In this document: piece after piece, positions 5,611 through 7,130 of the stretch
Numbering within the stretch: the stretch's first letter is position 1
How the letters are laid out: the number at the start of each line of letters is the position of its first letter
Virus record (IMG/VR): IMGVR_UViG_2695420698_000011
Direction: 5' to 3' (one strand)
DNA: 9,294 nucleotides
DNA from: a virus
Lineage: Duplodnaviria; Heunggongvirae; Uroviricota; Caudoviricetes
Program-made: the position numbers and the translations under genes
The notes under the pieces: model-generated
What the model was told of the DNA's origin: nothing
Seen by the model: the letters and a program-made list of their open reading frames with translations, nothing else
The model's database searches: none

Positions 5611-5808
5611 ATGCTAAAACAGCAGGATATGACAGAAACCGCCAGAGTGGTGTTTAATGAATTAAGCGTTACCGAACCGGCGACAGTCGGGGAGATAGCG
5701 CAGAATACTTACCTTTCACGCGAACGCTGCCAGTTAATACTGACCCAGCTGGTTATGGCGGGTCTGGCAGACTATCAGTTCGGTTGTTACAGACGCCTTC
5801 CGCAGTGA
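5611..5808 (+). CDS. small winged-helix-like DNA-binding protein, 65 aa
   Basis: ORF track; AAGGA 5600-5604, 6 nt before ATG 5611; segment ATVGEIAQNTYLSRERCQLILTQLVMAGLADY looks like an HTH recognition helix plus wing; stop lies inside a terminator hairpin. Confidence 0.55.
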   Translation: MLKQQDMTETARVVFNELSVTEPATVGEIAQNTYLSRERCQLILTQLVMAGLADYQFGCYRRLPQ

Positions 5809-5820
5809 AGGCTTTTTTAT
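5795..5820 (+). terminator. rho-independent terminator: GCCTTC-CGCAGT-GAAGGC plus TTTTTTATTT
   Basis: Perfect 6-bp GC-rich stem with the stop codon in the loop, followed by a T-run. Confidence 0.7.
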
Positions 5821-5866
5821 TTGTGGTAAATGGGCGGCTGGTGGGTGTTAGGGGCACCCACCAGCC

Positions 5867-6364
5867 NNNNNNNNNNNNNNNNNNNNNNNNNNNNNNNNNN
5901 NNNNNNNNNNNNNNNNNNNNNNNNNNNNNNNNNNNNNNNNNNNNNNNNNNNNNNNNNNNNNNNNNNNNNNNNNNNNNNNNNNNNNNNNNNNNNNNNNNNN
6001 NNNNNNNNNNNNNNNNNNNNNNNNNNNNNNNNNNNNNNNNNNNNNNNNNNNNNNNNNNNNNNNNNNNNNNNNNNNNNNNNNNNNNNNNNNNNNNNNNNNN
6101 NNNNNNNNNNNNNNNNNNNNNNNNNNNNNNNNNNNNNNNNNNNNNNNNNNNNNNNNNNNNNNNNNNNNNNNNNNNNNNNNNNNNNNNNNNNNNNNNNNNN
6201 NNNNNNNNNNNNNNNNNNNNNNNNNNNNNNNNNNNNNNNNNNNNNNNNNNNNNNNNNNNNNNNNNNNNNNNNNNNNNNNNNNNNNNNNNNNNNNNNNNNN
6301 NNNNNNNNNNNNNNNNNNNNNNNNNNNNNNNNNNNNNNNNNNNNNNNNNNNNNNNNNNNNNNNN
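5867..6364. other. 498-nt N run (masked or unsequenced)
   Basis: Literal n characters; hides the 5' part of the methyltransferase gene and anything between the terminator and that gene. Confidence 0.95.
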
Positions 6365-7130
6365 TGTGCTGAACCATATTATCTGGGCGAAGCCGTCCGG
6401 ACGCTGGAACGGATGCAACAAGGAAAGCCTGCGGGCGTATTTCCCCGCCACAGAGCGCATTCTGTTCGCGGAACATTATCAGGGGCCGTATCGTCCGAAA
6501 GATGCCGGGTATGCGGCGAAGGGCAGTGCACTGAAACAGCATGTGATGGCCCCGCTGATTTCTTACTTTCGTGATGCGCGAGCTGCCCTGGGGATAACGG
6601 CAAAACAGATTGCAGATGCCACAGGAAAGAAAAACATGGTGTCGCACTGGTTCAGTGCCGGTCAGTGGCAGTTGCCGAATGAAAGCGATTATCTGAAATT
6701 ACAGGCGCTGTTTGCCCGGGTGGCAGAAGAGAAGCATCGGCGTGGTGAACTGGAAAAGCTCCACCACCAGCTGGTGGATACGTATACCTCACTGAACCGG
6801 CAGTATGCGGAGCTGCTGAGTGAATATAAACATCTGCGGCGGTATTTTGGCGTGACGGTGCAGGTGCCGTATACCGATGTGTGGACGCATAAACCGGTGC
6901 AGTTCTATCCCGGGAAACATCCGTGCGAAAAACCGGCAGAAATGCTGCAGCAGATAATCAGCGCTAGCAGTCGTCCGGGTGACCTGATTGCAGATTTTTT
7001 CATGGGGTTGGGTTCGACAGTGAAAGCGGCACTGGCGCTCGGGCGTCGTGCAATTGGCGTTGAGCTGGAGACTGAACGTTTTGAGCAGACGGTTCGGGAA
7101 GTACAGGATTTAGTCAGCCAGAACGGATGA
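6365..7130 (+). CDS. DNA methyltransferase, N6-adenine/N4-cytosine (beta-class) family, C-terminal 255 codons visible; 5' end inside the N run
   Basis: Translation contains HPCEKPAEML (HPTQKP-like motif) and DFFMGLGST (FxGxG AdoMet motif) with an internal HTH-like segment LGITAKQIADATG; stop TGA 7128-7130. The DPPY catalytic motif would lie in the masked part. Confidence 0.75.

Follow-up and report, generated by a model that had tools for sequence, protein, structure and literature searches.

A probable assembly-interrupted copy of a lambdoid-prophage module with a small winged-helix gene, a structured leader and an orphan M.EcoGI/M.EcoGII-family methyltransferase

Results

The 9,294-nucleotide stretch of Caudoviricetes DNA analysed here (IMG/VR record IMGVR_UViG_2695420698_000011; its full length is called the window) carries at 5611-7130 a small open reading frame (ORF), a run of 498 N and the 3' end of a DNA methyltransferase gene. 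We consider it very probable that this region is an assembly-interrupted copy of a module widespread in lambdoid prophages, in which an orphan methyltransferase of the M.EcoGI/M.EcoGII family is combined with a small winged-helix gene and a structured leader of ~150 nucleotides (nt). As a gene, the methyltransferase is ordinary: it adds a further member to a well-characterised, very common and already known family, that of the commercially sold M.EcoGII.

The visible part of the methyltransferase is of the M.EcoGI/M.EcoGII type

The visible part of the gene, which we assign to the M.EcoGI/M.EcoGII-type beta-class N6-adenine DNA methyltransferases, lies at 6365-7130 on the plus strand and corresponds to residues 99-352 plus the stop. 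Its readable codons (6366-7127, with the stop at 7128-7130) specify 254 amino acids (aa), and the ORF is listed as 5784-7130 because the frame runs across the N stretch. In Pfam, the 254 residues matched PF01555 (N6_N4_Mtase) with 87.2 bits (gathering cut-off 26.7; E 2.1e-24) over profile positions 75-219 of 221, and HPCEKP at 6918-6935 and motif I, as F-M-G-L-G-S-T, at 6999-7019 could be read directly. An earlier note made from the letters of this DNA had taken the visible sequence for the C-terminal part of an N-4/N-6 methylase with HPCEKP and FxGxGST motifs, and the profile match and the motif positions bear this out.

Between the two conserved blocks there are ~100 residues beyond the Pfam expectation, at ~6549-6782 in the window, and these correspond to a helical target-recognition insert with a helix-turn-helix (HTH; PMC11551740). 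AlphaFold2 modelled a 93%-identical relative (P0005) as a Rossmann core with a helical insert at residues 146-255 (helices 146-173, 177-184, 190-194, 204-223 and 231-255; pLDDT, or predicted local distance difference test score, ~65-84 in that part) and an HTH at 177-194, in agreement with the four-helix bundle at 160-237 in the published dimer model of the family, and the window residues matching this insert are nearly identical. The HTH-like insertion noted earlier thus has its counterpart in both models. The PDB copy searched held no solved structure of the family, the nearest solved chains being those of other beta-class enzymes.

One of the matching loci is in Escherichia coli O104:H4 strain C227-11, from which both M.EcoGI and M.EcoGII come. 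Over residues 99-352, the window protein is identical to the C227-11 copy at 239/250 positions (96%), to an O121 copy at 245/254, to a Shigella boydii protein at 251/254 (99%) and to M.EcoGII at 227/249 (~91%), although identities to M.EcoGII are approximate because the PMC11551740 supplement, the source of its sequence, was machine-read with evident errors, two obvious ones of which we corrected manually. The C227-11 copy itself is identical to M.EcoGII at 331/348 positions and is therefore probably M.EcoGI, M.EcoGII being a 349-aa beta-class prophage enzyme that is identical to M.EcoGI at 333/349 (PMC5778455). Judged from its sequence, then, the visible 72% of the enzyme belongs to the M.EcoGI/M.EcoGII family, even if the database name of the closest proteins is just 'DNA-methyltransferase'.

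M.EcoGII and M.EcoGI (Murray et al. 2018, PMC5778455) share with the window gene the beta-class PF01555 architecture, a length of 349-352 aa, the helical HTH insert and a prophage context of antiterminator gene Q, small ORF, methyltransferase and tRNAs. The window gene differs from them in having GLG, not GSG, in motif I, and it ends as the 352-aa '...VSQNG' variant, not as the 349-aa '...DLIV' form. Phage 1720a-02 is one of the enterobacterial phages in which enzymes very similar to M.EcoGII are found (PMC5778455), and it was among the DNA matches of the window segment. M.EcoGII methylates adenine in any context in double-stranded (ds) DNA, single-stranded (ss) DNA and RNA; the lysogen does not express it, and its constitutive expression harms the cell (PMC5778455). 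The specificity of the window enzyme, which the earlier note held to be beyond judgement, can consequently be judged by proxy, since the visible 72% is 91-96% identical to M.EcoGII/M.EcoGI and M.EcoGII is context-free.

The module is common, and the methyltransferase is an orphan

The 498-N run at 5867-6364 is an assembly gap, which by homology stands for codons 1-98, with the catalytic DPPY (motif IV), together with the ATG and ~91 nt of the leader. This content was first read from an alignment with three intact relatives. Fourteen relatives could be aligned on both flanks, and in each of them the segment hidden here measures 385-386 nt and holds the end of the leader, the ATG and codons 1-98 including DPPY, a motif found at residues 35-38 in 95/95 aligned relatives. 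The earlier note had placed the gene start and the catalytic part in the gap, which is where these relatives have them.

A DNA search with the window segment matched 3389 of 5426 complete E. coli genomes, at a median of two places per genome and a maximum of 15, as well as 292 phage records, mostly of Shiga toxin 2 (Stx2)-converting phages. In annotated relatives, Q is followed by the small ORF and the methyltransferase and then by tRNAs, stx or other cargo and lysis genes, a layout seen in both Stx2 phages and non-Stx prophages and likewise at the C227-11 locus. In all, small ORF, ~150-nt spacer and methyltransferase occur as a unit between Q and the lysis genes at ~90 loci, from Escherichia to Proteus. 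We surveyed 80 loci from species-representative genomes, ranging from Escherichia to Proteus and Xenorhabdus, 78 of which were assessable upstream: the small ORF lies directly 5' of the methyltransferase in 62 and is missing in 16, most of which retain the leader. The exact 65-aa protein is extremely common and, among the matches listed, is followed 150 nt further on by the methyltransferase in 9/10, with three Q families represented. On the 3' side, the tRNA cluster is mostly a feature of the Escherichia lineage and is missing there in most other genera; in other genera, holin and endolysin genes directly follow the methyltransferase.

Two loci depart from this layout. E. coli L097 (CP123349.1; 889-3747, 4198-6382) keeps the small ORF and the leader with only 163 nt of the region that follows the gap in the window, and its Q-to-small-ORF interval contains genes for a C5-methyltransferase, a GmrSD-like protein and a HEPN protein, cargo which shows that the slot collects defence and anti-defence genes. 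In Providencia huashanensis (L078:5186-6684), genes for a Ser/Thr protein kinase and a PP2C phosphatase replace the lysis genes 3' of the methyltransferase.

No restriction endonuclease gene was found in the window, and none was annotated or found beside the module in the loci examined. The neighbours in the window (Q, RusA and DUF968 genes upstream; tRNAs, STnc100 and iraM downstream) are likewise those of an orphan lambdoid-prophage gene; the earlier note had already called the methyltransferase an orphan. It is accordingly most improbable that the gene represents the modification partner in a conventional, sequence-specific restriction-modification system with its endonuclease gene in the masked or neighbouring sequence. 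PADLOC, which gave the methyltransferase generic models only and the small ORF no match, ranked a 'Type II methyltransferase' model best, and NCBI calls relatives 'site-specific DNA-methyltransferase'; but such database names are automatic, the homologue that has been characterised is not sequence-specific, the interval from Q to the lysis genes in complete relatives is free of endonuclease genes, and in relatives leader and codons 1-98 fill the masked segment fully.

A conserved RNA structure precedes the methyltransferase start

The visible 5' part of the leader, at 5831-5866 on the plus strand, forms a long hairpin or inverted repeat, the remainder of the ~150 nt being masked. Over 47 distinct sequences from relatives, the ~150 nt before the ATG have a mean column identity of 82%, a conservation far above that expected of intergenic DNA. 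Single leaders fold well below their shuffled controls, with z-scores of -3.5 to -4.9, into a long 5' hairpin and a second domain, closed by a basal stem in which GGUCA pairs with UGAUC (-6 to -2) and the AUG is paired too, so that -6 to +3 of the start region are involved; this pairing of GGUCA with UGAUC and of the AUG is found in nearly all of the 47 leaders. Since RNAalifold on the MAFFT alignment gave a partial structure, we transferred the minimum-free-energy fold of a single sequence to the alignment and counted its pairs. By this procedure, which somewhat favours the structure, 88% of the cells on the alignment are paired, compared to 30-40% with slid partners, and 14 pairs, inner helices included, show compensatory changes, the observed covariation score being reached by 0/500 shuffles.

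A covariance model built for the element (R1) found one leader per locus, abutting the ATG, in 56/60 loci (a full element lies, for example, at L003:6420-6571). In the window, the model matched at 5836-5866 (model positions 19-49, 20 bits), and only the hairpin was found because the remainder is masked. With the intact leader of a relative as query and a permissive threshold, Rfam returned no family apart from an opposite-strand P26 match (24 versus 36 bits), which we took as chance. The methyltransferase start lacks a Shine-Dalgarno sequence at the usual distance. From the sequence, we read the leader as an element that probably limits translation of the methyltransferase. Its 5' hairpin is also a perfect inverted repeat at the DNA level and could serve as an operator.

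The small ORF encodes a winged-helix protein

The small ORF (5611-5808, plus strand) encodes a 65-aa protein that matches phrog_331 (E 1.4e-37), and its ratio of nonsynonymous to synonymous substitution rates (dN/dS) relative to relatives is 0.06-0.22; from this match and these ratios we conclude that it is a real gene. AlphaFold2 predicted, with a pLDDT of 90.8, three helices (4-16, 26-33 and 37-49) and a beta hairpin (strands 53-56 and 59-62), and the model superposes on the IclR-type winged HTH of 2g7u with a template modelling (TM) score of 0.82 and a root-mean-square deviation of 1.5 Å in Foldseek, in line with the winged HTH that the earlier note had seen in the protein. The Foldseek neighbours are generic, with E near 1e-3, and include IclR and MarR regulators as well as the winged-helix dimerisation domains of S-adenosylmethionine (SAM)-dependent O-methyltransferases.

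NCBI names the small ORF TrmB, and Pfam TrmB scored 18.0 bits, below its cut-off of 25.6; matches to DprA_WH and MarR_2 were of similar strength and also sub-threshold, there was no HTH_3 or XRE match in Pfam, and a profile search against PDB sequences gave nothing significant (best E 0.07). The predicted structure thus supports the fold class but not a family. The net charge calculated from the sequence is -1, which is atypical of a nucleic-acid binder. Its position next to the methyltransferase had led to the suggestion that the protein is a cognate regulator, and it may have such a role; the enzyme is fully active in vitro without it, and 16 of the 78 assessable loci lack its gene.

Promoter and terminators point to late expression

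A putative late promoter pR' lies at 5392-5419 on the plus strand, overlapping the end of Q, and consists of TTGATT, a 16-nt spacer and TGgTAAATT with an extended -10. It is conserved in relatives (alignment columns 1-25), and it is not listed in the consensus scan because it scores 8/12 and the scan needs 9/12; its assignment as pR' is by analogy with lambdoid phage organisation. Some 45-70 nt further on is a tR'-like intrinsic terminator (5467-5492, plus strand), formed by a 7-pair stem at 5467-5486 and a T run, and the changes in its stem in relatives preserve pairing (alignment columns 66-92). The small RNA (sRNA) StxS was considered for the pR'-tR' interval and rejected, as StxS goes with a 144-aa Q and the Q here is of the 273-aa PF03589 type, and there was no Rfam match. 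The terminator scan found a second intrinsic terminator at 5795-5818 on the plus strand, with the stop codon of the small ORF in its loop. Other genera, among them Salmonella, Klebsiella and Mangrovibacter, also have terminators with the stop in the loop and covarying stems. On reaching the end of the small ORF, a ribosome would cover the 5' arm of this terminator, which could couple translation to read-through.

In the lambdoid scheme, pR' is constitutive, transcription from it ends at tR', and Q permits read-through. Applied to the window and its relatives, where the module lies behind Q at the head of the operon, this scheme would have the methyltransferase transcribed only late, and the late-operon position claimed in the earlier note is confirmed. 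In the lysogen, transcripts from the constitutive late promoter would stop at tR' and once more at the terminator that follows the small ORF, and an RNA stem would further lock the methyltransferase start. Once the phage is induced, RNA polymerase modified by Q would read through and the enzyme would be made late, when it could methylate a large share of the adenines in replicating phage DNA before packaging. Progeny DNA would therefore resist, in the next host, the many restriction enzymes of Types I, II and III that N6-methyladenine (m6A) blocks. Such an anti-restriction role, which the earlier note had suggested and which we think plausible, has also been proposed by the authors of the M.EcoGII study (PMC5778455).

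Alternatively, the main substrate or purpose of the enzyme might be RNA or host DNA, with an effect on gene expression or induction in place of protection of phage DNA. M.EcoGII does methylate ssRNA and RNA/DNA hybrids (PMC7544214), and a precedent exists in M.EcoPA8orf6770P of Stx phage PA8, a Stx-type prophage methyltransferase of the MT-A70 type which, with its small partner protein, prefers 16S rRNA and raises spontaneous induction (PMC10810198). Here, too, a small conserved protein is encoded beside the methyltransferase, its charge is unusual for a nucleic-acid binder, and its best Foldseek and profile matches include winged-helix dimerisation domains of SAM-dependent methyltransferases. 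However, these structural matches are generic, as noted above, the activity of M.EcoGII is higher on DNA than on RNA, and the gene lies behind two terminators in a late operon, where it would be expressed in a host already doomed. The PA8 enzyme, moreover, is of another family and is encoded elsewhere in the phage; that it is the same gene could be rejected, as it is an MT-A70 protein with DPPW encoded as phage gp5, compared to PF01555 and, in relatives, DPPY. We hence regard a role centred on RNA or host DNA as improbable and favour late methylation of phage DNA.

Integrity of the window copy

Several points weigh against our interpretation of the region as a copy of this module with an anti-restriction enzyme. 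The scaffold is poor, and the linkage between the two flanks of the methyltransferase gap is the assembler's inference. The start codon and the N-terminal 98 codons with DPPY are masked, and the gap nominally exceeds the segment it stands for by 113 nt. At 7008-7010, motif I reads Leu (TTG) where 95/95 close relatives have Ser (TCG), a single-base difference, and 81/86 distant cluster representatives have S, G or T at that position. As for the role, the efficiency with which plasmid DNA transforms E. coli falls by 4-5 orders of magnitude upon modification by M.EcoGII, so that heavy methylation may carry a cost, and our literature search on M.EcoGII and prophage induction gave no paper testing the enzyme in phage growth.

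Some of these points would be accounted for if this copy were a decayed, inactive remnant, disrupted in the masked stretch or crippled by the Ser-to-Leu change in motif I, a possibility that we take seriously even though we judge it unlikely. A gap of 498 N in place of a strictly conserved 385-386 nt could reflect such a disruption; but N-run lengths are unreliable in a scaffold with stacked alternative alleles, an insertion element would need more than 113 extra bases, and the excess reflects either a wrongly sized gap or a small insertion that is real. As the IS2 end in the window shows, the genome has active insertion elements, the closest full-length relative, S. boydii P0002, has an aberrant N terminus (MESLPADCLEF...) without the first ~14 normal residues, and the L097 locus has only the 163 nt of the corresponding region mentioned above while keeping small ORF and leader. 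On the other hand, the visible 254 codons are open, without a frameshift, and 96-99% identical to intact relatives, and draft assemblies often break in this gene because it is repeated (the median of two and up to 15 places per E. coli genome mentioned above). Draft Shigella contigs also break within the gene, which fits a repeat-induced assembly gap. For the Shigella flexneri partial protein P0042, interruption by an insertion element was considered and rejected, as all contigs start inside the gene and hence reflect repeat-induced assembly breaks.

The motif I Leu is unique with respect to the 95 close relatives, and an exact 35-mer across its codon had no match in the species-representative genomes. 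The FxGxG pattern is nonetheless kept, as F-M-G-L-G compared to FFMGSGS in the family, and the TTG codon could be a sequencing error; if the substitution is not such an error, the enzyme may tolerate it or be crippled by it. At 6660-6662 there is another rare change, Ser197 to Gly. Overall, we continue to prefer an assembly-interrupted copy to a decayed one.

Other features of the window and quality of the scaffold

Pfam, ARAGORN, Rfam and the ORF list together show that the window is a stretch of lambdoid prophage reaching from Q to late genes. Its order is hok/sok, a DUF968 gene, RusA, the antiterminator gene Q (PF03589), the small ORF, the 498-N gap and the end of the methyltransferase gene, followed by three tRNA genes, a 117-aa ORF, the sRNA STnc100 and, on the minus strand, the start of iraM. 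The 3' copy of Q lies at 4672-5427 on the plus strand (PF03589 Antiterm, E 2e-49). The gene is present in the window as three assembly pieces (3838-5427), compared to a single 273-aa Q just upstream of the module in relatives: 3890-4189 is 100% identical to 4625-4924, with a 68% variant in between. Similarly, the 5' end of RusA occurs twice (2833-2926 and 3467-3554), as does a tRNA-Arg block (7330-7433 and 8243-8346), and runs of 1-122 N separate these tandem pieces of Q, RusA and tRNA-Arg. They look like alternative alleles of co-resident prophages set end to end by the assembler. The N runs of the window would accordingly be assembly gaps between stacked prophage alleles, with lengths that cannot be trusted, and neither gene order nor gap sizes in the window are to be taken literally.

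Upstream, a hok/sok-type toxin-antitoxin locus at 871-1196 (Rfam sok, 112 bits) overlaps a 70-aa ORF with a Hok-like peptide end, and an IS2 end (2934-3103; 97.6% to annotated IS2 transposase regions) directly follows a 7-N gap that cuts the start of a RusA-like gene. Downstream, the tRNA cluster at 7171-7420 (plus strand; ARAGORN and Rfam tRNA) comprises a tRNA with a CAU anticodon, Arg-UCG and Arg-UCU, and in Escherichia-type phages it is part of the late transcript of the methyltransferase. ARAGORN calls the first of these tRNAs (7171-7246) 'Met (CAT)', whereas RefSeq and Stx-phage records have it as tRNA-Ile (ileZ), a reading in which the CAU anticodon would need lysidine modification. The 117-aa ORF at 7531-7884 (phrog_2873, E 4e-70; no Pfam or PADLOC match) fills the post-tRNA slot where Stx phages have stxAB, and no stx sequence is visible in the window. 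STnc100 is a full-length match at 8410-8599 (124 bits), between the duplicated tRNA-Arg block and a 580-N gap.

Discussion

Orphan phage adenine methyltransferases with little or no sequence preference are also known from Mu-like prophages, where Hia5, Hin1523 and Nme1821 (Drozdz et al. 2012, PMC3299994) block ~30 m6A-sensitive restriction enzymes and occupy a slot for late anti-restriction genes (PMC3299994). They differ from the window gene in belonging to a Dam-related lineage, with motif I before DPPY (191-194), and to Mu-like rather than lambdoid phages.

A parallel in anatomy is offered by com-mom of phage Mu. The mom gene is host-toxic and late, specifies a broad-spectrum adenine modification and is preceded by a ~60-codon gene, with an mRNA structure before it by which its start is occluded (PMC3299994), which resembles the small ORF, leader and methyltransferase described here. 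The likeness is one of analogy only: Mom has an acyltransferase fold and Com is a zinc finger, in contrast to a Rossmann methyltransferase and a winged-helix protein with only two Cys, and the leader here persists in loci without the small ORF. The controller (C) proteins of Type II systems provide a second comparison, as small HTH proteins encoded 5' of a modification-related gene, and the inverted repeat at 5836-5866 is a possible operator in our case. C proteins, however, are of the XRE/HTH_3 family and time an endonuclease gene, whereas the protein here is a winged-helix one with no XRE match and there is no endonuclease.

We tentatively suggest, while regarding it as rather doubtful, that the small protein and the structured leader form a safety switch for a host-toxic, context-free methyltransferase. 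The protein might bind the hairpin RNA and open the start-occluding stem, in a manner like that of com-mom, or it might bind the inverted repeat as DNA. If this were true, it would represent an undescribed post-transcriptional or operator-based control unit present in thousands of enterobacterial prophages, including those of Shiga-toxin phages. Such a toxic enzyme has to be tightly controlled, and the terminators, the start-occluding leader and the winged-helix partner provide a concrete candidate mechanism for this. As methyltransferases of this family share a late transcript with the Shiga toxin genes, their control bears on the biology of Stx phages and on their host range.

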